Below, piece by piece: positions 5,507-53,427 of a stretch of 64,000 nucleotides of DNA. Source of the DNA: Psilocybe cubensis (Eukaryota). Below the pieces are notes generated by a model. It was not told the DNA's origin. It ran no database searches and saw only the letters and a list, made by a program, of their open reading frames with translations. Location of the stretch: contig CM039008.1 of the NCBI GenBank assembly GCA_017499595.2, positions 372,001-436,000 of the forward strand, given 5' to 3'. Position numbers and translations under genes: made by a program. Positions within the stretch are counted from its first letter, which is position 1. Each line of letters starts with the position of its first letter.

Positions 5507-6208
5507 AGCTTTGATTGTCGGTGCAACGCGGGCGCTTAATTAGAGATGATACTGGTAATTTTGTTGGTTAAACGTGAAGATATCGGCAGGCGGTTGGAGA
5601 GCAAGGAGAGGGAAGTTCGTTGGCGTTCATCTCCTCTTTCTATGCAGGTCGTTTTCCGGCAATTGGAGGAGTTCCGGGTATTCGGTGATTGCTTGCTCCG
5701 GAACCCGATGTTGGCACCAGGCAAACCACTGCCTACGACAAATTGCAATCAAAAGAAAAAGCAGATAAAAGTATACTTAGAAATAGATCCACAATAATAT
5801 ATGTTACAGCTGCGTTCATATCGATAGGCCTAAAATGAAAATATATACATACATGCAGACTTCGAACCTGTTGTAAGGGAGTCATTTCGGGTATGTTTTT
5901 AGTTTGAGCTGATTTTGAACAGTGGTACGATCTTCAACGATGCGTTGACATATTTCCCAAGTCGAGAAAGGAACGGCCCTAAAAATGTCATTGGAGTGCA
6001 ATCTGAATGACACAAAACCTGACACCATAGCATCACCCTATAATCGACTCTCAAAAAATCATAAAATTACATTATGGTGAACACCAGACAAGATCCCGAG
6101 TCTCTAACTGAATCCTCTGGTGATAGGAATGTCTTCCTAGATAGTCATTATCGGAAAGACATTTAGAAAAAACAAATGGCCAATTTGCTTGAAGTCACGC
6201 GTTGAGTA

Positions 6209-6340
6209 ATCCCACGCAGCGCGTCCGAAACTGTTACAAGAATTCCCAAATATGGTATTAGTGTTGGAATTGTGCGGATTTGGCCCAGGCCCAAGCCAAG
6301 CTGAAAGAATCCTAAATAACTCCGAACCTTTGTGGCATAC
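6209..6340 (+). repeat. Diverged direct repeat; uninterrupted copy of the sequence flanking the MITE at 7943-8289
   Basis: atcccacgcagcgcgtccga (6209-6228) matches 7917-7936 at 19/20; ccaaatatggtattagtgttggaat (6246-6270) is identical to 8308-8332. Confidence 0.8.
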
Positions 6341-6990
6341 AGCAAATCTTCCTGTAATACTGCATTACTCTGTGTTCCATACCAGGAATGCTTCTTGAGC
6401 GATACACATCGTCGGATGGCTTGTTACTAATACTAGTGCCATTTGTCCCTCCCTGGTACGCTTGGCAGATTATACCCCAGATTGGCTATGCGTTATATAT
6501 TGATAGGCCATTCGACTGACGTTAAAAAGGTTCTTCAATAGAGAAAATTATGTACGTTTCTAACTACCTTTTTACTCATTTGAATAATAATAGGCCCCGA
6601 TAATGGAACCTTTATTGTGCAGTATGAGAAGCCTGTGTATCTACAATGAATTCCATATTTAATATATCATCCGTCGCAGTTGAGAAATTTGGTACTCAGA
6701 TGCTCGGGACACTCTTACTTATTTTAGACTTTCTTGTAATCTTTCATTAAGTTCGAATCTTACACTGCGGTTCTGTGGGCTGCAAAACCATGAAATTTTC
6801 ACCGCCCAAGTATGCCTAGGAATACATTCGCATAATGGAACATGTTCAATTTACTCTATATAGTGTGCCATTTTCGATGCCAATACCATATAAGCAAGGA
6901 GATAGTCATTCAACTACCTAGCCATACCCTCCAGCATCTCACTTCAACTTCAACGAACACAAATTTCTTGACTGTCTCTCGAGACATATC

Positions 6991-7644
6991 ATGACGCCTT
7001 TCTCCCGGCAGCCAGTGAGAAGCCACACAATCAACCGCCACAAGCTCAAGAGATCATACCGGATGCTGATCATCGGGGACCCTGAACAGGAAGGTTTGAA
7101 GGAAATAGTTATGCTACATGTTAGGAAGACATGTACCTTTAATCCACCATTAGAGGTTTTAATTATCGCGTTGCTTGACAGCGTGTGGACGCCGGAGTTT
7201 TCATTAGAGTTGCAAAACAACGTCCCTCCAACCGTATATTGCGCAGAGATCAGACGCCTATCATCGAGTCACCTCGCCTGGGAAAAATCCGACATTTTCT
7301 TTTCCAGACAGCTTTTGCTTCGACAGCCGACCTTTACTCGAATGGCGATTTCAATGGACCATCTGCTTGGCAACCATCCGAGGCACGAAGCCACGCTTTG
7401 CGAAGTTATTGGGACGCAGAATCTGTCCCAGCTATTTGTGTACCCTCACTCCGACCACTCAGTTTTCTCTGAACATTGTTCAGAGTATGTGGACTCCTTA
7501 GTTGCTATCCTCAAAGCTTTGAAGATATTGGATACCCTTTACCTTCCGGCATTACCACTACAAGCCAGGAATGAAATTTACGCGGTGCTCGCTAAGAGAA
7601 CTGTCAGGCCTCGAGTTTATTTCAGTTTGATAGTACAGCGATAG
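6991..7644 (+). CDS. Intronless hypothetical protein, 217 aa (paralog of 2965-3645)
   Basis: ATG-started open frame; motif similarity to 2965-3645; TATA-like sequence ~100 bp upstream. Confidence 0.65.
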   Translation: MTPFSRQPVRSHTINRHKLKRSYRMLIIGDPEQEGLKEIVMLHVRKTCTFNPPLEVLIIALLDSVWTPEFSLELQNNVPPTVYCAEIRRLSSSHLAWEKSDIFFSRQLLLRQPTFTRMAISMDHLLGNHPRHEATLCEVIGTQNLSQLFVYPHSDHSVFSEHCSEYVDSLVAILKALKILDTLYLPALPLQARNEIYAVLAKRTVRPRVYFSLIVQR

Positions 7645-7942
7645 CATGCTCGATGGGGTGGCTTCCTATCTAGTGCTTGAACAAAGGCCAGGAATGATCG
7701 GCTAAGCTCTGTGCAAGAGTCCGCAACGGCGTAAAGTTATATCGATCAAACAGGCCTCCGAGATTGAGTTTTGAACAATGAGTCATTGAGGTCGTGTAGT
7801 TCTTTAGCTTGCTATAGCCTTTGTATTATGTCGTTCCGTTTAATGATCAATTTTTTGAAGTGCTAAACTTCGATTTTGTTGTTCGATTATCGAAAGGACG
7901 GTGTTGCGTGTTAACTATCCCACGCAACGCGTCCGACACAGA

Positions 7943-8289
7943 CACGCCGGACAAAAATGCTGACCAGTTAGCCTGGGTGTTGTCCTGACCAGTGACGTGA
8001 CTAGTACCGTGACCAATTACATAGTGTCACACATATGTTGTCACGCTAATTCATTATTAGTAGGCTCGACAATAAATGGCAAATTACTTGATTGTCTTGC
8101 GTTGTAATTCAGTGCGGAGTAAGAATAAATATTAAACAATCAAGTAATATGTCATTTACTATTGATCCTACTAATAATGAATTAGCGTGACAACATAATG
8201 TGTGACACCATGAAATTGGTCACGGTACTAGTCACGTCACTGGCCAGGACAACACCCAGGCTAACTGGTCAGCATTTTTGTCCGGCGTG
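7943..8289. mobile_element. Non-autonomous foldback element/MITE, 347 bp, possibly CMC/EnSpm(CACTA)-type
   Basis: ~150-bp near-perfect inverted arms beginning CACGCCGGACAAAAATGCTGACCAGTTAGCCTGGGTGTTGTCCTG and ending ...CATTTTTGTCCGGCGTG; ~40-bp spacer; 3-bp target duplication AGA (7940-7942 and 8290-8292); no coding capacity. Confidence 0.9.
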
Positions 8290-8624
8290 AGAACCATTGC
8301 GGAGCTTCCAAATATGGTATTAGTGTTGGAATGAGAGAATTTGGTGCATATGACAGCAGGTGCCACAGTCTTACAGTAACTCCAACGCTTACGATATACA
8401 CTGTTGCTACCTACACGGAACGGGTCGTAATTGATGATCTAACAAGTATGTTGAGCCACCTAGTCCAGAGATTATCACTTCATGACCCTACGTATGATCT
8501 TGTAATCTCTACATGTTCAACCGCATGGGTATTGTACTCATTGATAATTCATCATTACATATGTTCATGTAAGCAAGCGATTTCTCCCAAACTTCTTACC
8601 TGTGGTTCATTGAAAATGTTATTT

Positions 8625-10137
8625 TCAGGGTACATGATCTATTGCGTTATGCTCTTTCGCGTACTTCAGGGCCTCGAGTTTAGTCCTGTGCATCGCTTCC
8701 CTCAATGCCGTTCGCTCATCGTTCCACTCTGGCAATGCGTCATGAAGCTCCGGTCGGGCTTTAACAATGTCCTCTTTTAAGGATCTAGCGTATTCCTGTT
8801 CGCCGTGACCAAGGACATTGTACACCATAAGCGCAGATGGATTCTCAATCTGGTTCCTCCACTGGTCAATCGCAGCCATCCTTTCTCGTTCAAAGGCGAG
8901 GCGACCATCTACCGTGTCGGGATAAGAAGCTTCCCCTGTCCAGGCTAAAGTGAGCCAGGTGCTTGCGACATCAGCGATGGTGAACGGGGTGTACGACATC
9001 GGAGCACCAATAAAGGCCAAAGATGGGTTGTGGGCATAAAGGATCAGACGGTGGAGAGATGGAACTCTATGAGGTTTGGTGTCATGATTGGCGATTGGTG
9101 CGAGTGTTCCCTTTGATTCTTCTAAAACGTAGACGAAGCTGGGCATGATTTTATATCCCGTGCCGATATGTACGACGTCCAGATCAGTGATGACAGTGCC
9201 ATCTGATAGATGAGCGTCAGCTTTGCCGCCGTCCCCAGTGTCCTTCGCTGTATATTTAGATACGGGCGCTACCATTTTGATACGTTCGTCTGGGAGGCTC
9301 ACGAAGCCTGGAAAGGCAGGGCGACGGATACTTTGATATATTGGCTTATTGGCAACGGAAGCAAGCTGAGCGGCGATGTCGTTGGATGAGTTTGCATTCC
9401 CGACCACAAGAACTTTCTGTACCTTCGTAAACGCAGGTCAGAACAGAAGAACGCACTAACACGTACTTTATCGACATAGCTCTCCGGTCCCCTCCAAGAC
9501 TTCGCGTGTTTGGCGATGCCTCTGGCCTTAAGCTCTTCTAGACCATCGGTATCGGGCCATACAGGATTGTCGTACCACCCAACAGCAACAACGACAGCGT
9601 CCCATATCTCATCCTCCTCTTTGCCATTGTGATTCCAATTCCTCGTTACAACGTTCCAGCCCCTTTTGGATGGAAGCTCCTCAACGCGCACAACTTCGCG
9701 ATTCAACTTGATTACACCTTTCTCGATATAAGGCGTAGCGAAACCTTTGAGGTAGTTGTGTGTCTCTTTCAAAGTCGGGAATGGTTGATGTGGCGTTGTA
9801 GGAGATGCGGGAAAGGGATGTTCAGAGAAGCTCAGAAACTCCGGTAGAACATTGCCGATCATTCCTCTGTACGCTGGAGATGGCCAGCGAGGATTGTCCG
9901 AAACTGGAAACGTATCCGACCCTTCGTCAAGAAACCTTTTCCAACTTGTGAATAACATTACATCTCGCATCTCTCCTGCACTCACCAGACCCCACCGACA
10001 TCATCTCTCCTTTCGTAGAGCTCGACGTGGTTAAAGTTCCCTCGTTCCCGTATATTCCGAAGAGTGACAAGTCCAGATGGTCCGCCGCCAATGACGAGGA
10101 TACGCCGGGGAACAGGGAACGCAGACATGTCTGTCAT
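8625..10137 (-). CDS. Flavin-containing monooxygenase (FMO family), 3 exons
   Basis: FAD motif ILVIGGGPSG, 'ERRDDVGGVW', 'DAVVVAVGWYDNP', second dinucleotide motif VVGNANSSND, 'GTGY'. Confidence 0.9.
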
Positions 10138-10391
10138 TCACTGAGCTTGACATGCTCAGCAGTCAACCAGACATTGCCTTATTGCGTATTCCAGGCCAGA
10201 CTAATGGGTTGATCAGAAACGTGCCAGGTGGTGATAGGGAGGGGTTCCTGTGTCATTCGCACTTGAATGCAGATGGATATCAGAGGTAGTCGTCTTACGC
10301 CTTCTTTTACAATGAACACGAAGCAGAAGAAGACCAGTGAACTTTCGAGAAAATCTTGAAGAAATTAAGACCAACATCAACTAAACAGACA

Positions 10392-10830
10392 GTAGATTAC
10401 AATGCAATGTAATCCAATACAATAATTTTTTAGTCTTACAAATCCACCCAATTTTTGGGGCCCGGTTTACAATGTCAAGCAATAGTTTTATTAGGTTAGA
10501 AAGTGGTCATAATTATTCAATTGAAATTATTCAGTGTGAAATGCTACATTGTATCGTAACATAGGATACAATGCCCACTACAATGTACCATATGATGGGG
10601 GTTTAATGAATTCATTGAAACCCTGAATCTAGTACTTTCAAAAAGGTAACTACATTGTGGTGTATCTTCTCGATTCATTGAATGTCTAACATTATACAAA
10701 TATGTAGTATCTAATCATACCTTTGTTTGTTCACTAGTAAAATTGTTATGGGTAAGGATTTGAATGTTGCATTAAATAGGACTGGTATCGGAAACCTAAT
10801 TTTTGCTAGTATTCCGACATCACTGTACTC
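10392..10830 (+). repeat. Left terminal/subterminal inverted-repeat region of the KDZ element
   Basis: AT-rich with recurring TACAATG/CATTGTA; reverse complement of 10547-10573 matches 24991-25017 at 24/27; 10672-10682 matches 24879-24889 exactly. Confidence 0.75.
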
Positions 10831-10864
10831 GGATTGCATCCTGCGCTGGCATCAATAGAGGTAC

Positions 10865-11760
10865 GCGGCCTGCCGCGCGCGTCGCTTACAGGCTATGCGC
10901 ACCAATTGGAAACGCGCGCATTGGACAGTTTCCGACCCGCCGCTGCCGCGCGCGGCACTGCGCACCAATTGAAAACCTGCGCATCTGCTAGATTTCCGAC
11001 CCGCCGCTGCCGTGCGCGGCGCTTACACGCTATGCGCACCAATTGGAAACGCGCGCATCGGACAGTTTCCGACCCGCCGCTGCCGCGCGCGGCGCTTACA
11101 CGCTATGCGCACCAATTGGAAACGCGCGCATTGGACAGTTTCCGACCCGCCGCTGCCACACGCGGCGCTGCGCACCAATTGAAAACGTGCGCATCTGCTA
11201 GATTTCCGACCCGCCGCTGCCGTGCGCGGCGCTTACACGCTATGCGCACCAATTGGAAACGCGCGCATCGGACAGTTTCCGACCCGCCGCTGCCGCGCGC
11301 GGCGCTTACACGCTATGCGCACCAATTGGAAACGCGCGCATTGGACAGTTTCCGACCCGCCGCTGCCATGCGCGGCGCGGCGCACCAATTGAAAACGTGC
11401 GCATCTGCTAGATTTCCGACCGCGCGGCAGAGCTTACACGCTATGCGCACCAATTGGAAACGCGCGCATCGGAGAGTTTCCGACCCGCTGCTGCCGCGCG
11501 CGGCGCTTACACGCTATGCGCACCCATTGGAAACGCGCGCATCGGAGAGTTTCCGACCCGCCGCTGCCGCGTGCGGCGCTGCGCACCAATTGAAAACCTG
11601 CGCATCGGACAGTTACCGACCCGCCGCTGCCGCGCACGGCGCTTACAGGCTATGCGCACCCATTGGAAACGCGCGCATCGGAGAGTTTCCGACCCGCCGC
11701 TGCCGCGCGCGGCGCTTACACGCTGTGCGCACCACTTGGAAATGCGCGCATCGGACCCGC
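10865..11760 (+). repeat. GC/CpG-rich subterminal tandem array; 73-bp and 64-bp monomers forming a 210-bp higher-order unit
   Basis: Monomer gcttacacgctatgcgcaccaattggaaacgcgcgcatcggacagtttccgacccgccgctgccgcgcgcggc; unit starts at 11021, 11094, 11167 (short variant) and 11231; about 12-13 monomers. Confidence 0.95.
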
Positions 11761-12049
11761 TATCACATTCAACTTGTATTTAGTTCATTGTACTTCTAAA
11801 TTATGTGATCTGTTCATTCTTATTTCACTTGATTTCATAGCATACATAGAAGACAAATGATATAATTTGATCATACAGACACAGTATGCTACTACTCAAA
11901 CTTGAACATGTTAACATCTAAAAATTTATCAAAGTATGCAGGAGTGAATACCAAACCACTCTGTTCCAGTTCCGACACAGCTAGCAACGGGGTAGTTTCA
12001 ACATGTACATCGTTATGAATTCTAAGAATTTGTTGAGGATATAACAAAG

Positions 12050-13660
12050 TTACATACCACTCTCCGACTGGAACTCGCTGCCACTACCCTCATCTTCTGC
12101 AATATCTGACTGCCTTCCTGTTTCTTCGTCCAAAGTTCCGCCCAAGTTGTCATCCGACCCCGCATTTGTGCTGCTGTCATCGTCGAAAAGGCCTAATGCT
12201 GCATCCAAGCTGTCATCCGACTCGGAACCAAAAAGGTTGTCGTTTGCGGCTTGGTTTATAATATCGTTATCCGATTCGGAGTCACTGGAGTTGCCATTAC
12301 TGGAGACTGGATCCGCCGCTTCTGTAAAATCTTCAACGCTGGAAAGCGGGACCTGATCTGCAACTTCTGCAAAATCTCCGACACTGGAAGGCGGGCTCCC
12401 TTCGGTACCGTACTTGAAGTAGTCGGGTTGGGTGAATGTGGCGGAAGGCAATGTTTGGACGGCGGATATGGCTGCAGAATCAAAGGTGCCGACCTGAGAC
12501 AAAGAGTCTTCAGTGGAATATTTAACCTTTTGCCCTTCCTTGAGATTTTTTGCGTATCCTGTATGTTCTTTCGGATTGCTGACCTCGGAAATGCTGAGGA
12601 CATCTTTGATGGTAAGAGATTTCCCCCAAGTCCACTTGTCGGATGGGGGCGTCTGCTTTGAATTCATCAAATCGGCGGGTATTTCGGGTTTGCGGGTTTT
12701 GATGTTGTCGCGTCCATACGTTGCCGCACCCTCAATAGCAGCATCGTCAAGTTCCTGGCTAAGCTCGTAGAGCTTGAAAAATCCCATTGCACGTCGCGAA
12801 ATACAAGCAACTTGGTTGGAGGCTACATCGGCAAGACATGTAGAGAAATTCTTGACACCTCTGAACTGAACAAGCAGATCATCAGAAAGATTACGGAATT
12901 TAGCACAACAACCACAGTGTATGTCACCGGGTTTAGAGTCGGGAACAATCTGAGTCGGATAAATAAAGTTTGTCTGACCAGGGGCATCGGGAGGGGGATC
13001 AAGAGTAGACAGCTGCCCATGACGTATACCACTCGGCTCAGCGGGAGGCAGCGGTTTGGTGGAATCCTTTGCTTTGGGGAAACTTTTAGCATACTGTTCA
13101 CCATGAAATTTCATGATTTTCCCAATGGTAAGATGATTTAACATTCTTTCGGGACTTGGGGGGGTATTACGAGTCCACCAGTCATAAAGGTATTTTTTGA
13201 CACCTTTCTCAAAACCCTGGTCATTGTCATCCGCGGCCAAAGAGGGCAAAAGATCGGGGTGAAAGTCCATTGGAAACTCTTCGGGTAGACATGCAAAAAG
13301 AGATTCGGAAAGAAGGCGAAGGATGTATGGGATATCCAGCACCCAACCAACTGCATATGCTTGACCGACAACTGCCATAATGTAGTGCTATTGAGTACAT
13401 GAGATTTATCAGTGATAAGATGATGATCATTTCTGATAACACACCAATTCTTCCTGAAGGCAACGTTGCATCCATCCATGGTTGTCCAGACTGGCGTCGA
13501 TGATATGAATTAAAGCCTCGCGAAGTCTAGAAGCACCACAATATATGATTCCTTGCGCCAAAACCTGCTCGGCCTTTTGGGACCCAACTTGGATGTCAAA
13601 GGGGTTGAACGGTCTGATCGTGATCAAGGGTTGGTCAAAAAATGACTCGGAGTCACTCAT
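12050..13660 (-). CDS. Transposon accessory protein of unknown function (~520 aa, 2 exons; Cys/His cluster, acidic tail)
   Basis: ORF 13427-13660 joins ORF 12050-13378 through a GTGTGT...CAATAG intron (~13391-13444); 'IHCGCCAKF...C...C' cluster; D/S/E-rich C-terminus. Confidence 0.7.
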
Positions 13661-13692
13661 GGTGGTTGCAGATTAAGGACAAAAATTTCAAA

Positions 13693-16600
13693 TTACAAAG
13701 GTTTGTAATGTTTATTTACTGATCTAAAAGATCGATCTGATATCAAAGCCAAATGATGCCACATTTGCGCTTTGCGATGTGCATATGCTATTGCACCCGG
13801 CAAAATTGTCGGGTTATCCTCGATAGCCGACTTCCAGGTTGCACTCTTGTGTAAGAAATATGTCACGGTCCATTGCATCTCATACCTAACCAATGTACTC
13901 TCCTCCTTCCATCGTTGAAAGTGAGCTCTGGCTCTTAACCAATGTACTCTTTTAACTGAAAGGTTAATAGAAATTAGCGCTCAACAAAAATAGAATCAAT
14001 ATGAGAAATTAACTGACATTCAAGCACTGTTGCCGGATCAGCGTTATCGCCGAGAGAATTCGGATCGGCATTGTCGGGAGCGTCGGGATCCAGCACCCAT
14101 CGGGGACCTAACCGTTGATTTACTGAGTACCATATCCATGACAAGCGGAAATTTGTCGATCCTGGTATGTTCGGGTTAAGAACAGCGGTACTTGATCGGA
14201 CATCATCTTTGGTGAGGACCCGAAACTCCCGAAGAATATTGTTGTCGGCACCAAGTTGAACTAGGCAATCTCGACATCGTGAGTAGGCTTGTGCATGATG
14301 TGAAATGCGTTCCCTCAACTCCTTTGCTGCCGCTTGTCCTCGTGTACGCACACCTTTTCGTGGGCCCTTTCGTATGACATCGGAATACTGAAATGACCTC
14401 TCTGCAATAAGTTCTCGAATTTGATTCAGGTGTCCTCGAGCTTGTGAAATCCTAGCATGTATTTCAGATGGTGCATGAATGATGTCCACATTCCCATTAG
14501 AAGGTAGGAATATTGTTTGAAGGTCAATAGGCTCATACACCGCTGAACCCGATCCCGGCGCCAAAATGTCTTCCTCATCCTCCCAATCTATAAAGAGTTG
14601 TTCGGGTATTTCATTCCCTTTGGAAGCTGTCGGAAGAACTCCCGCGTCATTTTGCAGAATGCTTAGTTGAGCCATTAATGCTTTTAAAGTTTCGCGTAGC
14701 TTTATTAATTTGTTACGTTCCGCAAGCCGATCATGGTTAATAAGGCGTCGGGCTCTCATCCGAATGTCCAATCTGTGTGTATAACTATTAACACCATGAT
14801 AAATAATCAAGACTGATTTAAACACATACTGTCTTTCTTCCACAACTACTGCAAATTGTATCCATGACTCAATCGGGTTTAGAGGTCGATGCGGAACTGC
14901 ATCGGGAGTGACTGTGGAGGTTCCAGGCCTTTTTGCTGCATATATATCCATAACCTTTGGGTCCACCAACCTCTTGGACTCAGCTTCTTCAATTTGTTGT
15001 TTCCATAACTTTACTGCATCGGGGTCAGCTCCTTGGGTTAAGTTTACAAATGCTACCCGATACTGCTCTTGTTTTTCTTCAGCCTCATCATGCCTACGAC
15101 AGAGATATTTTGTGATTCCAAGAGCCTTTTTGTGATTAGAGTCGGAAGCATGATCGTCTAGCAACTCTGCACGGTGCGCCAGAGTTGCTGTGCGGGCGGC
15201 GGGAGATATATGATTCAAATCCGCCCATAGTGATTCCAAAATTTCTCCGCAGACGCAAGCGGCACCAGGAATGAAGGTTGGTGCATATCTAAAGAAACAT
15301 TCATCTTTATGAGCATGTACGTGAAACATGCCAATTGCCCGATCAACTTTGAGTCCTTTGGGGAGTAGATGCCCAATACGCTTGAGAAGATAAATGATAT
15401 ATTGACAGATTATGTCGTAGATAACCGCTAGGCCTTGGTCGGGATCAACACCTGTTGATTTTAATGCTGATAGAAGGGCAAAGTCGACATTCTTTTGTTG
15501 CTCTCCTTTAAAAAGATCGACAAGTGAATTGGGGGCGTAACATCCATGCCTTGCACAGGCAACCCCCACAATGCCTGTAACATCGCAGGATTTTGATGAT
15601 AATAATGAATTTTGGATTGCCCGGAATGTGTTTTCACATGGTGCTCCCTGAAGAGGGTAGTTAGATATTCCACCTGTTATTTATCAAATACAAAGCTCTT
15701 ACTGTCAATGCTTCAATGGCGGATTTCAAAAATTCACCATACTCCATTCGATCGGGTGTCATTCCACCACCTTCCGACAACCATATATCGCGGGATGGTT
15801 TTTTAGATCGGACATGGTCTGCTTTGAAGTTTCCGTCCGCTACAAAAACACGCTTGTAGACCCAGCGATTGGGGTCATCTTTCCAGTTGGCACTCAAATT
15901 GACACCAGGCTGTGGACATGCTGGGCAGAAATTGGCTAGTTCTCCCCGCCCAACCGACAGTGCACTTTTGCCGTTATGGCCTCCGAATCCTGCCCATTTT
16001 AACTTTTTCATCCATCTCCATAAGCGGGACATCCGTCGAAATTCATTATAAAGATTGACAATGGTATGCGGGGCAGTCGGATTGGTGACACGTCGCAATA
16101 GGGAGTAGAACTGGTAAGCAGAAGACTTGAGTTCTAAATTTGAGAGTCGAAAATAATCTAATAATTGTGCGGAAAATAGTGTGCGGATTTGCTGGAAACT
16201 TGTCGGTAGCAATCGGCATGCCATGAGATCTAAAGGAAGCTGCCCCGACCCATGGCAAACGCAAGATACCATAGCCAAATGATGAAGGCCATTAGTATGC
16301 ACAACTCGCACATAGGAATTGTTTAACCCATCAGCAAAGGGGGCATTTCCAGTGAAGGTAGAGTTGGGATCCCGATTCCCGACCGTTGGTGGCGAAAGAT
16401 ATGCTGGCATGAATCGGACATCGGAGTCGGCATCACCTACCTCTGCTTCATCATCACCATCTTCAAATCCCTCCAAATTTGATGGATCCTCCCGAAGCTG
16501 GTTGAGATACTCCTCAAACTGATCATCTGTAATGCCATCTGGATTTTGGGTATGTTCTGAGTCCTCCTTAGTATCATCCATAAAAATATCATTGTCATAT

Positions 16601-17438
16601 CTTGAAGGATATGAAGGTGATTCAGATGTCGGGTGTGCGACGCGCAGTAGAGCCTGTTCTTCAAAGTCTTTCCGCTCTTCCAACTCCTCAAGAAGTTGCT
16701 TTTGAAATGTTAGAGATTCGCATAGAGGAGGAAATTCTGCAGAATGGTGAGATATTAATAGATAACATCCCACCTCCCATAGCTCTGCTGATCGGAAATA
16801 GGCACCATTCCAACGCTCTATCCTATGCATTGGATTAACCTGATGCTCATGTCGTATGCACCGTCTGCATAATAGAGATGGAATAGAGCAATCTCGACAC
16901 CTCCATACCGAGATGCAATCGTTATGGCATTGTGTGCAGATGGATGGTGCATTAAGCGCCCTCGGCGCTTCTCGACTCAGCAATGCACCAAGTATATCAT
17001 CCACTCGTTCCACAAATTGCAGAATGTAGTCTCTTTGAGTCTTTAACGTATAAGATAAGCCAGCAACTCCATTTAAAACTTTGAAATTACCTTTCGAGGT
17101 CTGGAGTCTACAGGTCTTCCATCGTCGCGGTGGTCATCAGTGTTGTGTATGTCATAATCACCTTCATAGCCTTCCGATGTATCCTGATTGTCTATATGCC
17201 ATGGATCACCTGTATTACGCCTCTGTGGAACTGCCAATGAGACTGGAACAAGGAAAGTCAGTGATTGTAATAATAGCTTGCATTTTTTGATACCTTTTAC
17301 CAAGTCCGGAACCGTCCTTCCAGTTCTTGTTGTACGAGTACGATTTTCATATGTTACTGCGTCTGCTGCATCAGCATCATCCTCATATAATGTCCCCTTT
17401 TTGGATCTTCTTGAACTTTTGGTTCTCTGTGACGGCAT
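13693..17438 (-). CDS. KDZ (Kyakuja-Dileera-Zisupton) transposase with CxC2 cysteine cluster; multi-exon, apparently intact
   Basis: CxC2 region 'CRDC...CRRCIRHEHQVNPMHRIERWNG', 'VVHTNGLH', 'CVCH', 'TLFSAQLL'; 'CPACPQPGVN'; catalytic-region motifs 'VADGNFKADH', 'GVACARHG', 'KGEQQKNVD', 'YDIICQY', 'FHVHAH..EC', 'GEILESLWA', 'LDDHASDSN'; C-terminal 'LSWIW' and 'RVHWLRARA..RW.EE..LV..EM'. Confidence 0.93.
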
Positions 17439-17634
17439 AGAAAAGGAATAGAAAGAGCAGAACAAAGTACAAACGTGAAGACTCTTAGGTTCCTTATCAT
17501 GAAATCGATTGGATCTTATTCCTGAATGGAGGTTGTGAAATTTGTCATACAGGCCTGAAAAATATAAATAGGGAAACCTTCTAGCTAAGCTGAATTCTTT
17601 ACACCCCCATAAAAAGGTATAAGCAGCCCAGAAC

Positions 17635-19625
17635 ATGTCGGAGATAGATGAGCAAGATGTTCTAGATGTTTTTCAGACCCACGATAGGCGCAAGAGGGTG
17701 TACAATAGTCTGGAGAGAAAGGAAATAGACCCTTTCAAAGAAGAATATTTTGCGGCAACATCTAATCTTGAACGCAAACAGGTTGTATGCAAGATTCTCC
17801 CTAAACTATTTAATATTTGGGTTACGACAGGAAGTAGACGTCTGTCTGCAACTCAGGAATTTGCACAAAAAGAGGCAAAGGTATGTTACTATTGGTTACT
17901 TACCTGACAATATTTACCAATTCCGATTACTGCCAGCGGCTACTTGGTTGGATTCGGAATAATTGGAGAGCACCTCAACCAACCGGTGCTGAACTCAAGG
18001 GGAAAAAGCACAAGCGTACTACTGTGCTATGGCGAACCCGACCCGACGATGTCTATAAGGAAATTGCCTCAATCCTTGGACTTGAACATGCCGACAGTAC
18101 TACACCTTTGGCATTTGAAACCCGCTCCCGTGCGATGGGCAATATTATTAGCCGCATGACTCCGCAAGAAAAACGAGCTCTGGATAGGGAAGCGGAAACA
18201 TTGAATACAGTTGAGTATACGGACGAGCAGAAACTAAAGTAAGTCATTAATATTTAACAGTACACTAGCTCTAAAATATTTATAGGAGGGGGAACAAATA
18301 TGCTTTTAAGAGGCTTGATGAGGCTGCTACTGTTCATTGGGCAGAAATGGGTTTGATGAATATAACATTTGTTGCAAGGCTCAATGAATCGGGCCAGCTC
18401 TCTGTCCGAGTGTGAGTCATGTTTTTCCACATTCAAACACATGCACTCACCAATTTGATAGTCATGATCAAGTTGCTAGTACACTTGGTGTTGTCTCCAC
18501 TCTGTTTGAGGACCAGAAGCCCGATGAAGTCACCCAAATGAAGAGGATGGTTGCTACATATGTTCGTGGGTTGTTAAATGCTAGAGACAGAATACGGAAT
18601 GGGACCCGCAATGAAAACACTACTGAAATATCTATCCTTGACCAAGATCCCGACGGATTTCCGCTTTTGCCATCCAACTTTGATGCAAGTAAATACAACA
18701 AGGAACAGTTGGAAGAGTTGTATCGTATGTATATGGGGCAGAACTACTGTGAGTTGCCAGTCATTATTTTCTTCAAAAGGGATACCTTTGCCTAACAATT
18801 GAGTAGTTTTAGCCACCAATGGCCGTTCTAAACATGCACCATTTAATGCTCTTCATGAATATCAGTCAACATTTATTTCACCAGAATATTTACCCCCAAA
18901 GGTCCGCCTTAATGCACCCCGCTCAGTCAGTTTAGATGACCTCCGACGTATCATGGACCACATTTACGCCCGACAAGAAATATTTCCACCCAGCCAGGTC
19001 TTCCGCTTCCGCAAGGTAAAAAAATTTAGGAAGGGGGATGAAACTACCCCAACAAATTACCCCGACGAAGACTTTCAATCTGATGCAGAGAAGCGCCGGG
19101 TTCCACCTAAAAAACCAAAAAAAGCAGCTAAAAAGAAGAATACTGCCGCACCTACGAAACCCGCACCTCTTGAATCTGCACCACTCCGCATTGAAGACAT
19201 GCAAGGTGCTTCTCAATTGGTGTCCTTTGATAGTTTTCAGCCAGTAGAAGCGCCCTCAAAAGCACCACCTCCACCACCTCACACAAAGATCAATATGCAG
19301 GATATTGACCCAGTTTTGTTGAATGAAAGTCAAGCAAATCAAGTTATAATTCACACACCCGCACCCGCACCCGCACCCGCACCTGCACCACCCGCACCCG
19401 CACCACCCGCACCCACACCCACACCACCTGCACCCGCACCACCTGCACCTGCACCCACACCACCTGCACCTGCATCGGCACCTGCGCCCACGCCCGCACC
19501 TGCACCACCCGCACCTGTACCCGCACCACCTGCATCCGCACCCGCACACGCACCCACACACGCACCCGCACCCGCACCCGCACCCGCACCCGCACCCGCA
19601 CCCGCACCCGCACCCGCAGATGCAC

Positions 19626-19656
<31 letters not shown>

Positions 19657-20029
19657 TGCACCCACACCCACACCCACACCCACACCCGCACCCGCACCCA
19701 CATCCACAGCACCAACTCTAGTGATTGGTACTAATGGATTGCTTGATGTTAGTATTCTGGAGCCTGGGCGGCATACCAACAAAAACAAATCTTCCCGACC
19801 CAAACCACGTCCGAGAAAAAAGCCAACCACTCCCGATGAGATTGCACAGGCTGAAGAGTCAAGACGTTTATTGGAAGAGGCGCGGCAGATCGAGGCATCA
19901 TTGCATATACCAGCACATGCAGATAAGCAAGCAGAAAGTTCAGGTGTGCGAAGAAAGCATAGAGAGGTAGATGAGGACCTTATTCTCTCTGGAAAGCGGG
20001 TACGCCGTCAAAGACAAAGAAGCCATTAG
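17635..20029 (+). CDS. Transposon accessory protein, multi-exon, with Pro/Ala repeat and basic C-terminus
   Basis: Chain of ORFs (17635, 17883, 18412, 18953) separated by short GT..AG introns; (PA)n/(HA)n tract; K/R-rich NLS-like segments; divergent from the transposase. Confidence 0.75.
19354..19705 (+). repeat. Coding hexanucleotide repeat (GCACCC)n and variants
   Basis: gcacccgcaccc... encoding PAPAPA, HAHAHA and PTPTPT. Confidence 0.9.
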
Positions 20030-20145
20030 ATATTCTATGTATCTTAGTATCATGTTTTCACAATAAGAAAGTTTGGGCAAGCAGGAAAAATATATTGATA
20101 GAGATACAAAAAAAACCAGCCTGCACAATCAACCACTACACAATT

Positions 20146-23655
<3,510 letters not shown>

Positions 23656-23924
23656 TTGTAACAGCTAAGAGGGGGGAGTGTGGAGTATGTGTTAAATGTG
23701 TTGATTGGGGGGTCAGGGATGTATGTGGAGAGAAGCAAGTTGCACAAGTTGCACGGTACCTCTGAATTGACCCGATACGCTGTAAGTCGAAAGGTCATGT
23801 GATTGTTCCCAGACGTGCACCTATGATTGCCTCCGCAAATGCTTGGCGTGCAAGGGTATATCATGGCATCTCTTGTGATTTTTCGAGGCATCCTATCTTT
23901 TCCTCCCAAAGCCACTGTCGCGTC

Positions 23925-24569
23925 ATGTCCGATTTCAATCCCAAGCCTCAGACTGTTGAATCCAATGTTCCCAGTGGTTATACTGTTATTGAGGGGCCCG
24001 GGGGGAAGAAGTACCTTGTCCCCCTTTTTGTGGTGCCCTCTCTGGAATATTCAATGTCCGCTTATCACAAAAAAGCGGAAATGAAGACTGAAATCGCCAA
24101 TGCTGACGGTCTGGTAAGTAATCAGTTTTAATTGATTTTTATATTGAAAGTATTTACCATCCTAAGGATCCCTATCTTGAACGCTTACAGACCTACAACA
24201 CTATTGCGGGAACGCTGCACGCACCACCCGACCCGGTATGTCATTAAAATCCAAACCGCGCCACTCACACACACTAATGATCACTTCTGGCAGCCGCTTA
24301 CCGACAAGGAGCTTCTCCGACAACATGCTGAGGTCCAAGCACTTGTAGAAAAACTTGGCATCTCATATCGCGACGCTGCTCACCGCCTTTATATGGCCGA
24401 AATGGAGAAGTTGAAGGTCGCCGACATGCAAAGAAAATCATTCCAAATCTTTGAGAAGCGGGCGACTAACACCCTCAAGGGGATTGCAGGGCGCCATAAT
24501 TACAAGAGCAATTATTTTATGATGTACAAGAAAATGAAATCCGAAATATCAAAGCAGAAGGAGCAGTAG
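23925..24569 (+). CDS. Small transposon accessory protein, 3 exons
   Basis: MSDFNPKPQ...ADGL, GTAAGT intron, then ...PLTDKELLRQHAEVQALVEKLGISYRDAAHRLYMAEMEKLK...; divergent from the 20146-23655 gene. Confidence 0.7.
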
Positions 24570-24749
24570 ATACATAGCTAGTGATACATAGTTAGTTTCT
24601 TTAAAACAAATTATCACTGTTCCTTGCCTCAGACATGAGTGTAATGTGAAGTACAATACTCCCTAGTAGGTCAAGTTTGAAATTGTACTTGACTCGTTGA
24701 CATGAACCCTTGACTTCCAGCACCAAGCGGTATGCACATATTCAACTGT

Positions 24750-25050
24750 GCCAAACCCGATCATCAATTGTCGGTATTACTACTTAGAAATTTCCGCAGA
24801 GTACACTAAGACCCGACCTCACTGTATATTCCGACAATCCTACTAGATGTCAGCTAGAAGTCCTATTAATTACTGCTGTTCAATGAATCCACGCTATATG
24901 CTACATTGTAAATTCCCTGTTTTGGATAGTGTATATTCGCTGCTTTAATGAATTCTTTGAATCCGTATAATGCATCACAATGTATAGGTTCATTGTATCG
25001 TATGTTACTGTACAATGTTACAGTGCTATGTGAATTATTATTCATTTGAG
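24750..25050 (-). repeat. Inner part of the right inverted end of the KDZ element
   Basis: Colinear inverted similarity to 10510-10830 (ttcaatgaatc; aatgaattc; cattgtatcgtatgttactgtacaatg; tgtcgg..tact..tttccg). Confidence 0.7.
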
Positions 25051-25104
25051 TACAGTAGTAGGGACATGTTATGCATGTACATTGAAAGCGCATGCAATAT
25101 CGGA

Positions 25105-25285
25105 CTAGTGTGCGTGCACGTTCTCCTTCCCGCCCACAGACCAGTGCGGTGCGCCGAGGATGGGGTGCTGATACCCCTGCTGTGCATGAGAATGCTGCTT
25201 GTGCACCTCCTCCGTGACCAGCGCATCCTCTCCGAGCAACACACTCTCATCCACAGGCTTCATCACATCTGCCTCTGCCTGCGCT
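25105..25285 (-). pseudogene. Probable captured 3' end of an unidentified gene
   Basis: GC-rich, codon-like frame ...AEADVMKPVDESVLLGEDALVTEEVHKQHSHAQQGYQHPILGAPHWSVGGKENVHAH* ending in TAG at 25105-25107; no start codon context. Confidence 0.4.
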
Positions 25286-25320
25286 TTTCAGCCAACGCAG
25301 CTCACATCTCACAGCAAAGC

Positions 25321-26176
25321 TTACCGCGTCGGAAACGCCCCCAGTAGCTTCACACTCCACCCGCACTCGAGGCGGCAGCGGCATTGGCATTGGCAGCAGC
25401 AGTAGCATTAGCGCTTGACCCCGTTCGCCACCTCTCCAGATGATGAAAGTACGTCCCATATTGCGACAGACACTGGCCAATACTCTGTCCGAGACCCGCC
25501 ATGCCCATTACTGCTCCGGGTCCCGCTGCACCTGTTCCAATACCTGCGCCGGCTGCACCTCCACCACTTGTGCTCGCGCTTGTACCTACTCCAGCACCCG
25601 TGCCTACAGCAGCACCAGCGGATGCAGACGCAGACGTAAAGGTAGATGAAGAACCACCAACACCACCCAAACCCAGCGGCACACCCTCGCCCGCCTCCAT
25701 TGCTGCTGCCACTGCCTCACTTTCAGCACCTTCACTGATCATCAACTCCGAGAGCGCGAGCCCATTTGCACGTGCGCCTTGAACACCGTGGTCTACCTCA
25801 TTATCATTGTCGTCATTGTCTGAGGAGTGCGAGTGGTCAGAGAGCCACGCGCCGTTGTTGGGGAGCATGATGACCCCAGATGCATGGTCGTAGCTAAGAC
25901 GGTGGTTGAGCGCGTGCAGGTGTGTATGCGCGTGGTGGGGTGTTGGGTGGGAGTGTGGCCGTTGTTGGCATTGGCCTGATGGTCCAGCGGCGGGAGAGGA
26001 GGTGGATATGGATGCGGCGCCTTGCCATGGATCGAACATCGCGCTTGGGTCCGGAAGGATTCCTCCTGCACCACCATTTCCGTTTGCATTTCCACCAACA
26101 CCTACACTACCAGCCACTCCCGCGCCCTCCTGCAACATCCTTCTCAACCGTCCACTCACACGGCCGCACGTTCCTT
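25321..26176 (-). pseudogene. Captured C-terminal fragment of a basidiomycete hypothetical protein
   Basis: Begins ~10 bp after the HSP60 stop with QGTCGRVSGRLRRMLQEG, then RLSYDHASGVIMLP and YGTYFHH; LLGAFPTR* is reached only by a frameshift; no promoter space or ATG. Confidence 0.55.
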
Positions 26177-26187
26177 GTCAACCCCCT

Positions 26188-27962
26188 CTAAAATTCACCC
26201 ATGCCGCCCATACCACCCATACCCCCAGCACCCGCCTTCTCCTCCTCGGAGAATTGACGACGCACGCCTCGCTCGTGAACAGCAAGCTGGCTACGCCGCT
26301 CGCATCCACCAACGCCGTGCGCACAACTTTCAAGGGGTCAACGATACCCTCGCGCACCATGTCGACGTACTCGCCCTTGGCGGCGTTGTAGCCCCAGGAG
26401 AGCTTGTCTGCGCTGCCGTAGCCCGTTGGGCCTGCAAGGAATGTTGAATAGTTCCAGACGTACATTGTGTACAACACCACTCACCCTGGTTCAAAAGAGC
26501 ACCAACGATAACAGCACTCTTCTCACCGGCATTTATTCAGAATCGCACGCGTAGGCTGCGTAAGCGCACGCCTGATAATACCCACACCCAACTCCTGATC
26601 AAAGTTGGCCGTACGAATAGGCTGGGCATCTCCACTCACAGGGCTGCTCGTGCTCGCAGCCTGCGCACTCGCCGTCGCGAGCTGCAACGACGCCTTGAGG
26701 AGCGCAACACCGCCTCCGGGGAGGATACCCTCCTCGACAGCAGCGCGGGTCGTGTTGAGCGCGTCGTCGTACCTGTCCTTCTTCTCGCCGACCTCGACCT
26801 CGGATGCACCGCCCACCTTGATGACAGCTACACCTCCGCTCAGCTTCGCGAGACGTTCTTGAAGCTTGCTGCGGTCAAAGTCGCCCGTCGTGGGGTCCGC
26901 AATCAAGGCACGGATCTGCTCGCACCGTGCAGCAATCTGATCCTTCGCACCTTCACCGTTGAGAATGATCGTGTCGTCCTTGGTGACAGTGACGCTTCCA
27001 GTCGAACCGAGCATCTCCGCTGACGCACGCTCGAGCTTGACATCGAGCTCGTCCGTGAACACAGTTCCGCCAGTGAGAATGGCAAGGTCACCGAGGATGC
27101 TCTTGCGGTTGTCTCCGAACCCAGGAGCCTTGACAGCGCACACCTGGAGCTGACCACGGAGCTTGTTGAGGATGCAGGCAGCAAGAGCCTCGCCGTCGAC
27201 GTCCTCTGCAATGATGATCAGTGGGCGGCTGGCCTGCGCCGCGGCCTCGAGGGCAGGGAGGATATCCTGTAGGGCGGAAATCTTCTTCTCAGAAAGCAGG
27301 ATAAAGGGCTTCTCGAACTCGACGCGTTGGGACTTGGTGTTGGTGATGAAGTAGGGTGAAATGTAACCACAGTCAAAGCGCATACCCTCCGTGATCTCAA
27401 TCTCGTCCTCAATCATCTTTCCCTCCTTCACAGTGATGACACCCTCCTTTCCGACCTTTTCCATCGCCTGAGCAATCAATCCTCCAACGTGGGCATCACC
27501 GTTCGCAGAGATAGTGGCAACTTGTGCGATTTCGGCGGTTGTTGTGATAGTTTTGGCGTGTGCGGAGAGAAAAGAAACGACGCGGTCGACGGCAGCCTGG
27601 GATCCACGGCGCAGGTCCATGGGGTTGCATCCAGCTGCGACGTTCTTGACATCTTCTGAGTAGATGGCACGCGCAAGAACAGTGGCGGTTGTCGTGCCGT
27701 CTCCAGCAATTTCATTTGTTTTCGAGGCAACATCTTGAATCAGGCTGAGCAAATCTACTTAGCGCTCTGCTCGAAAACAGTGAAAGTGGGAAGACGTACC
27801 GAGCGCCCAGGTTCTCAAACTTGTCTTCACACCGTCTGTCGAAAACCAAACCCTCGTCAGCAAACACTCTCCCAGAACCACGAAACAACGCACCCTTGGT
27901 GATTTTTGGTCCACCGTACGCCTGCTCAATGATCACATTGTGACCCTTTGGTCCAAGTGTCG
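26188..27962 (-). pseudogene. HSP60: 5'-truncated, frameshifted mitochondrial chaperonin HSP60 (GroEL family) copy retaining introns
   Basis: [43 protein letters not shown] and GGMGGM tail; N-terminus missing; deletion after DGV (~27830); extra base at ~26533; missing base at ~26246; three GT..AG introns retained. Confidence 0.9.
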
Positions 27963-28893
27963 CACATCGATGCAACTATCCGAGCTATGTGAAATAGGTG
28001 CCAGCGGTTTTGACGTGGACTCAGAGATGTTTGTCAAACAAGATCAGCAGATGTCGGAGCTTCAAAATCAAATCAAGCGGAGCCTGAACTCACTTGAAGT
28101 CCCATTGCAAGCAAAATCATGTCCACTTTGTTTGCTTTTTTCTAACCACCACCATTCTCTGCCCACGGATATACATGGGGGCAAGGTACGTGTAGTCATC
28201 TTTGTAAATTGATGTCTCCTCCTCGCACTAACATCATACACATCTTCCTTTAACCAAAACAAGTTAGTAGATTATACTTTTTTGGTGAGTAATAGATGAT
28301 TCTCACTCGGTGCTCATCAGTACTCACCACATCCTAGGACCAACTATCTTGAACACTTGGATGAAGGGTCAGTATTTTAGTCTCTATTTAGTGTGCTTTA
28401 CACTACTAACATTACTTGTGAAAGGTCCCGGACAACCAGACATTTGGATACAGACTTGAAAGCATGTACATGTAAGTATATGCGCTTTTTATTGGTTTTT
28501 GATTCATTTTTTGATGCATATATTTTGGTTCTCCATTGCCCGTACCACTTCAGCTGTTCCGAATGCTTGAAGCTGCCTTTTCCCGTGCGTCTTCACCATT
28601 CACACCTTCTTTGTGTCATTGAGTGTAGGAATTGTCAGCTTTAGGTTCTGTTTTGGTGTTGAGGGTCCGGAGCCGTGCACGCTAGCATGCGGGTTCAATG
28701 TGTCTTATATAGTTGCACTATTTTTATGAATAAATAATCTATTTTTCATTATGATTTTTGTGTGCTCCAAAAGGCATTACAATTGCAATACCCAGAAATA
28801 TTGTAAACCTCAAATTAATTTATTCATGCTGCAATATTTCCGTTTTCTTACAACATTTCAAGAGCGTTGTAATGCAGTGCGAGAATTTCGAAG

Positions 28894-28934
28894 AAAAAAA
28901 TATTTTATTGGGTTTACAATGCTTTGTAATCTAC
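28894..28934 (-). repeat. Right terminal inverted repeat of the KDZ element
   Basis: Reverse complement GTAGATTACAAAGCATTGTAAACCCAATAAAATATTTTTTT aligns with 10392-10430. Confidence 0.75.
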
Positions 28935-29546
28935 CCGCACTTTTTATGATGAAATCAAACTAATTTGTTACAAATTTCCTGGAAAGAAAAAATAATGACA
29001 AAACATATGAAGTGACTTTTAAAGTCAGATTGAACAGTGAAAGGACTATCTGTAAAGCAATTCCAAGTGGCTTTGGCAGCCTGCGTAAACTTAAATAATT
29101 TTCACATCGTAAACGAAGCAAAAATACTTCGTTCACTATTTTCTAAAATTAGATAGTAGCTACGCGTTGGATCAATTCCGAAATCGCTCTGTGGAATTCA
29201 CAGTCAAGATAGCAATGTTGCTTTCATACCAGGGGTATTCTGTTTACGGGGTGTTGCTACTCAATAACTCTCCACAACTTTACCGTTGAGAGAATTCCAG
29301 TAGCAGACTGATACCATCTTGATAAGTCAAGAAAGATAAAGATGTCAATACAATGCATGAGAAGTACACCTCGAATTCCATGAAGCTTGATAATCTTTCA
29401 ATTATAAATAGGTATGAATGACTGGCGACAGCGAGCGTGTTAGAAAGTCGTCTTACCGAGGTCTGGTAATTAACATGTAGCAAAGTTGGATGTATAAATA
29501 ATGGACCTGTGCGGAGGCAGACCCCATACAGTCATCTTCCCCAAAG

Positions 29547-53300: not shown

Positions 53301-53427
53301 TCTTGTGATGAAACGGTTTGATTGGTTCGCTGGTCGACTCAACGATGCCCCAATTATGGAGGAAAGAATCAACAGTGTACGACGTGCAGTCCTTAGCATC
53401 TTCTTTTTCTTGTTGTTTCTGTATTAG
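50327..53427 (+). CDS. Fusion of a GDP-mannose 3,5-epimerase-like extended SDR, two GT-A (GT2-like) domains and C-terminal TM helices; one intron
   Basis: LITGGHGFI/GSH split by an intron (~50399-50450); LAANMGGMG, YASSACVYP, YGLEKL, RFHNIFGP, GREKAPAA, WGDG..RSF; GT-A 1 'ILLPITSRG...VLMGDDI'; GT-A 2 'VVIPCYR...GASASRNRG...FLDDDV...GGEDIDF'. Confidence 0.88.

Follow-up and report, generated by a model that had tools for sequence, protein, structure and literature searches.

A strain-variable insertion made of two nested transposons, one of them a KDZ element with companion genes, in Psilocybe cubensis

We analysed a 64,000-nt stretch of the Psilocybe cubensis genome (GCA_017499595.2, contig CM039008.1, positions 372,001-436,000 of the forward strand), called the window below, in which a first-pass annotation had described an interval of about 18.5 kb around a KDZ transposase gene as one giant transposon with inverted ends. 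We find that this interval is a strain-variable insertion made of two nested transposons, not one. Very probably, an autonomous 14.5-kb KDZ element of the Kyakuja type, with four companion genes, is nested in a small non-autonomous element that has ends of the PlavakaB pattern and carries host-like fragments. Both insertions are cut-and-paste events with exact ends: boundaries, target-site duplications (TSDs) and empty sites are seen for each, the KDZ element exists in multiple near-identical copies, and its gene order is conserved among relatives. The KDZ element may have entered before or after the outer element arrived at this site.

Joints, ends and duplications of the two elements

Sequencing runs were searched with window 5392-15391, half flank and half element, as the query, and nine of the 14 runs listed (3 studies) contain 82-94% of the sampled words. 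Four runs were aligned on window 9500-29400 at 85% likeness: X8, which consists of DNA contigs, X12, DNA contigs under another organism label, X13, raw DNA reads, and X10, presumed, like a further run, X11, to be RNA. Three joints appear in the reads: 10372->28952, 10524->25033 and 25120->28033.

The outermost joint, 10372->28952, skips 18,579 bases, its two sides having 2 letters in common, and delimits the outer element and its AA duplications (Table 1). This is the empty-site allele whose existence the first-pass annotation had suggested checking; it is carried by one X8 contig of 4,685 nt, the sole X8 record covering the left flank, and by 24 X13 reads with 20 different starts, approximately the whole flank depth of 34. 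The termini that had been proposed at 10392 and 28934 must be moved, as the reads put the outer ends at 10375 and 28951, 17 nt further out, and in a repeat search the outer inverted repeat likewise extends to 10375-10431 and 28895-28951. Loose-end reads of X13 accumulate at precisely these positions (460 at 10374/10375 and 561 at 28951/28952), with low flank agreement (0.37-0.45); because they continue into many different sequences, we take 10375 and 28951 as the precise termini of a multi-copy family. Some 280 X13 reads per side depart from the window at 10494 and 28782 into one common interior (agreement 0.98-0.99), and most family members therefore match this copy only in the terminal 120-170 nt. 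PlavakaB families are described with a 2- or 3-bp TSD and ends 5'-CATCA..TGATG-3' in PMC12730594 (section 3.2.2), a rule to which positions 10375-10379 and 28947-28951 and the AA duplication conform. No transposase family, that of Plavaka included, was found in the five Pfam-scanned open reading frames (ORFs) of 24866-28212, and we therefore read the outer element as non-autonomous with PlavakaB-like ends, not as a proven Plavaka member. On its right part, a 242-nt X10 contig (depth 56) aligns in four pieces to window 28244-28668 (plus strand) with GT..AG gaps at 28367-28423 and 28472-28553, and the multi-copy right part of the outer element thus has a match in a spliced transcript.

The joint 10524->25033 lies inside these ends. 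It is seen in 123 X13 reads with 63 starts and skips 14,508 bases, which correspond to the inner element and one copy of its TSD; X8 contig 21 terminates at 25032. The inner element begins CAGTG and finishes ATGTG, the first 14 nt of its two ends have only CA in common, and imperfect inverted similarity between them runs from nt 15 to about nt 150. Kyakuja families are described as having a 7-bp TSD, 5'-CA..TG-3' ends and no terminal inverted repeats, TIRs (Kojima 2025, PMC12730594 section 3.2.1), and the inner element indeed has a KDZ domain, a 7-bp TSD and CA..TG ends free of TIRs at the extreme ends.

Both inverted matches on which the first-pass annotation had relied are present in a self-comparison of the window (28894-28934 against 10431-10392, 85% over 41 nt, E 1.6e-4; 24879-25018 against 10682-10546, 69% over 141 nt, E 1.3e-5). 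However, they are not the termini of one element, as the two pairs belong to the two different nested elements. The heptamer TACAATG is found 21 times in the window compared to 9.9 +/- 3.3 expected, a count reached in none of 100 shuffles; six occurrences fall in the two 150-nt inner subterminal regions and three near the outer ends. The subterminal tandem array noted earlier is likewise there at 10856-11756, and every one of its units contains CGG-N7-CCG and CCG-N4-CGG. We suppose that the KDZ transposase would recognise the TACAATG-rich subterminal regions, cut at CA/TG and duplicate 7 bp.

The runs differ in what they carry. In X13 the depth of the inner interior is zero in 4 bins and low and paralogue-like in the others, the highest being ~7 per strand over the transposase domain, compared to ~17 per strand in the flank; X13 has the outer family but not this KDZ element. 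One run labelled Psilocybe cubensis is thus without the inner element. In X8 the site is empty, yet the KDZ element is present at ~99.9% identity (7 differences in a 7,257-nt contig), in contigs that break only at internal tandem repeats and at 25032, and the element must therefore be elsewhere in the X8 sample. Short (151-367 nt), low-depth (2-4) contigs of X12 fall on window 12039-20020 with 0-1 differences from the KDZ element and almost no flank; they may represent trace P. cubensis DNA in that sample.

Table 1. Positions of the two elements, their ends and their genes in the window (aa, amino acids)
Feature	Position	Strand	Details
Outer element	10375..28951		18,577 bp; ends CATCA...TGATG; imperfect terminal inverted repeat of ~57 nt
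Outer left TSD copy, AA	10373..10374		joint 10372->28952, 2 letters fitting either side
Outer right TSD copy, AA	28952..28953		sequence and joint
Inner Kyakuja-type KDZ transposon	10532..25032		14,501 bp; ends 5'-CA...TG-3'
Inner left TSD copy, AATTATT (7 bp)	10525..10531		sequence and joint 10524->25033
Inner right TSD copy, AATTATT (7 bp)	25033..25039		sequence
Left subterminal region	10546..10682		inverted match to 24879-25018; TACAATG at 10547, 10567, 10579
Right subterminal region	24879..25018		TACAATG at 24904, 24991, 25011
Subterminal tandem array	10856..11756		periods 73/137/210 nt; 11.4 copies of 73-nt unit
ORF-B	12053..13660	-	517 aa, one 57-nt intron; 36 nt downstream of transposase gene
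CxC2 + KDZ transposase gene	13696..17438	-	1175-aa model, 4 aligned blocks
Gene C	17698..20029 (start approximate)	+	divergent from transposase; conserved exons ~17698-17850, 17838-18242, 18388-18795, start of 18803-20029
Gene D	20146..23459	-	ORFs 22476-23459, 21552-22364, 20146-21648; putatively joined
Six-cysteine cluster in gene D	21822..21908	-	C-x2-C-x6-C-x7-C-x2-C-x6-C; 4.4 kb upstream of transposase start
Gene F	23766..24569	+	ORFs 23766-24131, 24132-24569; conserved, near right end
Segment with host-like fragments	25121..28032		2,912 bp; missing from another form of outer element
Low-complexity ORF	25350..26177	-	resembles transcript
HSP60 (Cpn60)-like copy	26187..27960	-	~residues 56-594 of 596; 5'-truncated

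The KDZ transposase and its companion genes

The transposase had been noted as free of visible stops, and to judge from its sequence it is indeed open: Pfam assigns the two long minus-strand ORFs at 13974-17133 to KDZ (PF18758, E 2.5e-38, 132 bits, the cut-off being 26.6) and CxC2 (PF18803, E 2e-15), and all 20 columns invariant among 29 relatives are retained. Identity of the KDZ ORF is 99% to a 1175-aa protein of P. cubensis and 71-72% to the next paralogues, and UniRef has three KDZ proteins of 1102 aa that depart from the window at 1-4 residues. One P. cubensis assembly has ORF-B/KDZ pairs on a 4.19-Mb contig (JR316_0002982/JR316_0002983) and on a 3.05-Mb contig (JR316_0011294/JR316_0011295), with a third ORF-B, JR316_0006507, on a 3.68-Mb contig; ORF-B of the window is 100% identical to JR316_0011294. 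At least three near-identical copies indicate recent activity of the KDZ element. The locus tag next to the first of these pairs, JR316_0002981 (P0164), is an ORF-B paralogue with 36% identity, and that copy may lie beside or inside another KDZ-type element. X10 has no contig on the KDZ genes and is uninformative on their expression, no RNA run with the element being on record.

A TET/JBP gene had been reported as unrecognisable, and we agree: no such domain is present in 17 Pfam-scanned ORFs of the interval, 14 of which lie inside the inner element, where the 14.5 kb are taken up by the array and five genes. The orientation of these genes is -,-,+,-,+. Outside the inner element, at 25.3-28.0 kb, lie two ORFs that look like host genes or transcripts and are not KDZ cargo.

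The neighbourhood of related transposases was examined in 80 loci (34-64% identity) from JGI metagenome contigs that had been scanned with a KDZ alignment. The window ORFs were compared with them by tblastn, and only loci with enough flank were counted as eligible, that is at least 1.2 kb downstream for ORF-B, at least 1.5 kb upstream for gene C and at least 6.5 kb upstream for gene F. Of the 32 loci eligible for ORF-B, 21 have a homologue, invariably on the strand of KDZ and 30-551 nt past its match. Homologues of gene C are present in 34 of 38 loci, on the opposite strand in 33 and 536-1574 nt from KDZ, and those of gene F in 8 of 12, at 5.5-7 kb upstream of KDZ. ORF-B, KDZ, gene C, gene D and gene F thus keep a conserved order at fixed positions in this transposase lineage. 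Gene C in the loci always consists of three separate ORFs, and its introns are therefore conserved; in-frame stops in 6 of 23 gene C exon ORFs mean that some of the relatives have decayed. Its tail is a Pro/Ala-rich repeat, and a gene C exon matches only unnamed clusters in the ESM Atlas (0.96). Arrays beyond ORF-B also occur in some relatives, few loci extending that far. One metagenome relative, L052, has 28-nt tandem arrays at 409-602 and 11069-11202, mutual reverse complements ~10.8 kb apart, which probably represent subterminal arrays of an entire element. We also tried to derive the element ends of relatives from near-identical locus pairs and rejected the results, the break between L028 and L029 lying in a variable array and that between L027 and L045 being an indel.

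ORF-B has 224 representative relatives at E<=1e-3, 83 of them at E<=1e-10, and no Pfam family was found in any of 60 members. In P. cubensis (two cases), Flammula, Crassisporium and Phlegmacium, longer KDZ gene models extend into ORF-B homologues (26-30% identity, E 2e-10 to 5e-73), and in P. cyanescens an ORF-B relative, CVT25_015010, shares a 17.6-kb contig with the KDZ gene CVT25_015008. Its AlphaFold2 model (predicted local distance difference test, pLDDT, 65) is all-helical; no PDB entry matched it at E<=0.001 in Foldseek, and a wide VIA-align comparison gave a best Z of 6.2 with generic helical chains. With an all-helical predicted structure and no specific fold match, ORF-B is not a TET/JBP enzyme in disguise.

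Gene D is the most elaborate of the companions. Judging from sequence features, its three ORFs probably constitute one gene that would encode an N-terminal motif, 9-aa repeats, a Zn2Cys6-like cluster, a coiled coil (seen as weak coiled-coil Pfam matches after the cluster) and a Pro/Ala/Ser tail. Strict splice rules join none of the ORFs and loose rules give many candidates, among them a 53-nt intron, 21540-21592, that would join the last two. No locus of the 80 was matched by tblastn with the ORFs at 20146-24050. The gene D ORFs are collinear with long ORFs in L016, L068 and L011, weakly so (E 1e-4 to 0.19), and single ORFs in these three loci combine the N-terminal motif, a Pro/Ala-rich stretch, the cluster and the coiled coil; the N-terminal link of ORF 22476-23459 to the zinc-cluster ORFs of the loci is also weak (E 0.015-0.08). 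Coding tandem repeats are found in genes C and D at 19356-19699, 20432-20568, 21274-21420 and 22631-22988 (CACCCG x57 and 18-, 27/57- and 27-nt units, respectively), all in frame, and X8 contigs break at each of them.

The cluster conforms to the spacing C-x2-C-x6-C-x5-12-C-x2-C-x6-8-C. Eighteen loci have 5 kb or more of upstream sequence, and in 10 of these the same motif is found on the KDZ strand, 4.0-5.7 kb upstream; it lies on the opposite strand in two further loci, which are near-identical to each other. The motif occurs 15 times in the 532 kb of locus sequence, compared to 0 in the reversed sequence and 0 in five shuffles, and an alignment of 13 sequences shows all six cysteines to be invariant. 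A profile built from this region gave 16 PDB matches at E<=10, 15 of which are Zn2Cys6 proteins by name (LAC9, GAL4, LEU3, AlcR, Pho7, RSC3/30, PPR1, CBF3B), and a 54-residue model (pLDDT 71.6) retrieved Zn2Cys6 domains at Foldseek ranks 1-25 of 28 at E<=10, every match listed except the last (best probability 0.93). Speaking against this identification, each of these matches is weak when taken alone (best E 0.013 for PDB and 0.076 for Foldseek), and Pfam Zn_clus scores 13.1 bits in gene D against a cut-off of 21 (E 0.11). Zn_clus is also sub-threshold in 4 of 10 locus ORFs (E 0.09-0.57), and the zinc-cluster ORF matches only unnamed clusters in the ESM Atlas (0.86). We call the motif Zn2Cys6-like because of the score under the cut-off.

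Gal4-type proteins bind CGG pairs. Let us suppose that gene D does so as well; a Gal4-like dimer might then sit on the CGG-N7-CCG and CCG-N4-CGG pairs of the 73-nt array units, and such binding could aid the transposase in finding or assembling the ends, or could control expression of the element. En/Spm and Harbinger are two-protein transposons, and the role proposed here for gene D would be similar to theirs. Extended to the lineage, Kyakuja-type KDZ elements would be multi-protein machines with a five-gene core (transposase, ORF-B, C, the zinc-cluster/coiled-coil protein and F), in which the zinc-cluster protein encoded by the element would attach to the CGG/CCG pairs of the array and thereby mark the ends or guard expression. 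We regard this as a doubtful scenario at present and offer it as a speculation. If true, it would make these elements a fungal counterpart of En/Spm TnpA/TnpD, and in this TET-less lineage such a system could replace TET/JBP anti-silencing cargo; the near-identical, strain-variable P. cubensis copies would then be an active system for testing it.

Host-like DNA, rival readings and the surrounding window

The third joint, 25120->28033, is found in 48 X13 reads; it skips 2,912 bases, and no letters at it fit both sides. Within the skipped segment, ORF 26523-27758 scores as Cpn60_TCP1 (PF00118, E 1.7e-38), and reference HSP60 proteins used in tblastn found no trace of the first ~55 residues. The window copy retains a minus-strand intron, 27745-27799, seen as a joint with CT..AC ends. 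RNA contig X10#4 has 62 differences from the copy over 1,382 nt, its match with the window breaking off at 27961, compared to 0 differences in 645 nt for a flank transcript of the same run, X10#1. The best database identity of the ORF is 86%, with no Psilocybe protein among the best 120 matches, so that the comparison with the parental gene was made through the RNA contig; HSP60 orthologues of other Agaricales are 87-91% identical to each other. Being within the insertion and absent from the empty allele, the HSP60-like sequence is not a full-length gene at its own locus; it should be regarded as a transposon-borne partial copy rather than a housekeeping gene. The neighbouring ORF 25350-26177 has no Pfam family, and RNA contig X10#3 matches 25318-26159 with 90 other letters and 10 gaps (~89% match). 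From the divergence of the transcripts together with the joint, we read 25121-28032 as captured host DNA.

If the whole 18.5-kb interval were a single KDZ transposon, with the outer inverted repeats as its ends and all enclosed genes as cargo, it would be natural that the empty-site allele loses the interval as one block, that the outer ends are inverted repeats and that TACAATG lies near both outer and inner ends. We nevertheless consider this very unlikely. A second precise joint, 10524->25033, with its 7-bp TSD and CA..TG ends, bounds the KDZ genes, and the outer ends are not KDZ ends, having a 2-bp TSD and being multi-copy in X13, a run in which this KDZ element does not show up at >=85%. 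ORF 25350-26177 and the HSP60-like ORF are 4.5-14% off the transcripts of a run whose flank is identical to the window, and they had no tblastn match in the window's KDZ-relative comparisons, which did not include a search of the 80 loci. Of the idea of one mobile unit with a fixed accessory set, the bounded insertion and the recurrent gene set survive; the set holds for the inner element only. One could also turn the argument around and regard the inner 14.5 kb as ordinary DNA of the outer element, the 10524->25033 form being a deletion between the AATTATT repeats. A 7-bp direct repeat could in principle mediate such a deletion, and this joint comes from one run, X13. However, the X13 interior with its zero-depth or paralogue-level bins leaves nothing to delete from, one assembly has ORF-B/KDZ pairs on two contigs and the third ORF-B on another, the signature published for Kyakuja consists of CA..TG ends and a 7-bp duplication, and a short contig end of X8 has the joined form too (loose end at 10528). 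A deletion thus appears extremely improbable.

A one-step origin of the composite deserves more attention: the KDZ element might already have resided in an outer copy elsewhere, and a Plavaka-type transposase acting in trans might then have moved the whole 18.6 kb. No allele with the outer element alone is seen at this site, X8 and X13 both having only the fully empty form, for which the 24 joint reads of X13 account for nearly the whole flank depth; and since cut-and-paste elements are defined by their ends, an intact-ended 18.6-kb composite is movable in principle. However, with just two informative runs the missing intermediate allele is weak evidence, and no second copy of the composite was seen in the data aligned. 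The end of X8 contig 21 at 25032 would fit several different right flanks of the KDZ element, or perhaps a contig-trimming artefact. We therefore judge a one-step arrival possible, if somewhat unlikely; under it, the earlier 'one mobile unit' would be right for this insertion event.

Several points weigh against our own reading of a Kyakuja-type element with a conserved gene set inside a PlavakaB-like carrier of host DNA. The alignment at 85% likeness can give false joints at repeats, although those reported here are anchored over long stretches and come from reads with many starts. The Kyakuja-type assignment, made from ends, TSD and KDZ domain rather than from a phylogeny, is a provisional one as to clade, and the suggested Plavaka link of the outer element derives from its ends. 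Transcript X10#2 matches from 25073, inside the presumed outer backbone, and makes the left limit of the capture uncertain. The 80 loci are not independent, nine near-identical groups being among them, and among the eligible ones 11 of 32 gave no ORF-B, 8 of 18 no zinc-cluster ORF and 4 of 12 no gene F. For the other KDZ copies, whose flanks were not seen, 7-bp TSDs and full length are presumed, and the splicing of genes C, D and F is a prediction.

Some further features of the window lie outside the insertion. About 2 kb to its left, a 350-nt stretch at 7943-8289 matches its own reverse complement at 88%, forming a long palindrome. Paralogous host genes, 65% identical over 1,262 nt, are found in inverted orientation at 8656-9892 (minus strand) and 33987-35225 (plus strand); neither ORF has a Pfam match, and X10 shows transcription of the left gene, with an intron of 50 nt at 9934-9983. 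Inverted matches at 43829-45085 and 55495-56633, 72-81% identical, bracket two sugar-metabolism genes, one at 47806-49563 with glycosyltransferase family 8 and methyltransferase domains and the other at 50452-53427 with epimerase and glycosyltransferase family 2 domains.

Significance and relation to known systems

KDZ elements are abundant in mushrooms, and few have exact ends, duplications and empty sites. The locus described here offers a complete Kyakuja-type element that is TET-less and whose ends are defined to the base; its host is cultivable, has at least three near-identical copies of it and shows presence/absence variation between strains. Four companions that keep their position beside the transposase in distant relatives turn what would be listed as 'extra ORFs' into a defined, testable module. 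There is also a warning for annotation, namely that the outermost inverted repeats around a transposase may belong to another element.

DNA transposons are known to capture gene fragments, as in Pack-MULE elements and CACTA transduplication in plants. The outer element resembles these as a non-autonomous carrier with intron-containing, truncated host-like copies between its ends; it differs in its Plavaka-like ends, its mushroom host and capture limits that are partly defined. The predicted product of gene D shares with Gal4-type Zn2Cys6 regulators (Gal4, Leu3, Put3, Ppr1, Pho7) the six-cysteine spacing followed by a coiled coil. It would differ from them in being transposon-encoded, under the Pfam cut-off and devoid of the fungal transcription-factor middle domain, its DNA binding being a prediction.

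In the literature searched, KDZ and Psilocybe were not found together. The companion-gene module is not described in the available parts of PMC12730594 and bioRxiv 10.1101/2024.08.15.608186, nor in the titles and abstracts among the matches listed; it may already be in print. With the PlavakaB families, as described in the part of PMC12730594 cited above, the outer element shares its CATCA..TGATG ends and 2-bp TSD; unlike them, it has no Plavaka transposase in the 5 scanned ORFs and would need moving in trans.

The Cryptococcus elements KDZ1, KDZ2, KDZ3 and KDZx1 are reported, in the available part of bioRxiv 10.1101/2024.08.15.608186, to be 6.4-10.9 kb long with an 8-bp TSD, to belong to the Dileera or Zisupton clades and to have CxC1 or CxC4+SWIM domains, KDZ1 having 236-bp TIRs. 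As far as that description goes, they resemble the inner element in being large, multi-ORF, mobile and strain-variable and in carrying extra ORFs of unknown function, whereas the element here is larger (14.5 kb) and has CxC2 and a 7-bp TSD. The inner element is also close in kind to Kyakuja-1_LB, Kyakuja-2_LB and other Kyakuja families as presented in the available sections of PMC12730594, with which it shares the KDZ transposase, 7-bp TSD, CA..TG ends, lack of a true TIR and an Agaricales host. The Kyakuja families of that paper were, according to the same sections, selected for TET/JBP cargo; compared to those described there, the element here is without TET/JBP, has imperfect inverted similarity from nt 15 to ~150 and a one-sided tandem array, and carries the companions ORF-B, C, D and F, which these sections do not mention, a comparison that leaves aside published lengths and gene maps. 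Complete KDZ elements are thus already known, and what is new is a larger, TET-less Kyakuja-type element in P. cubensis.

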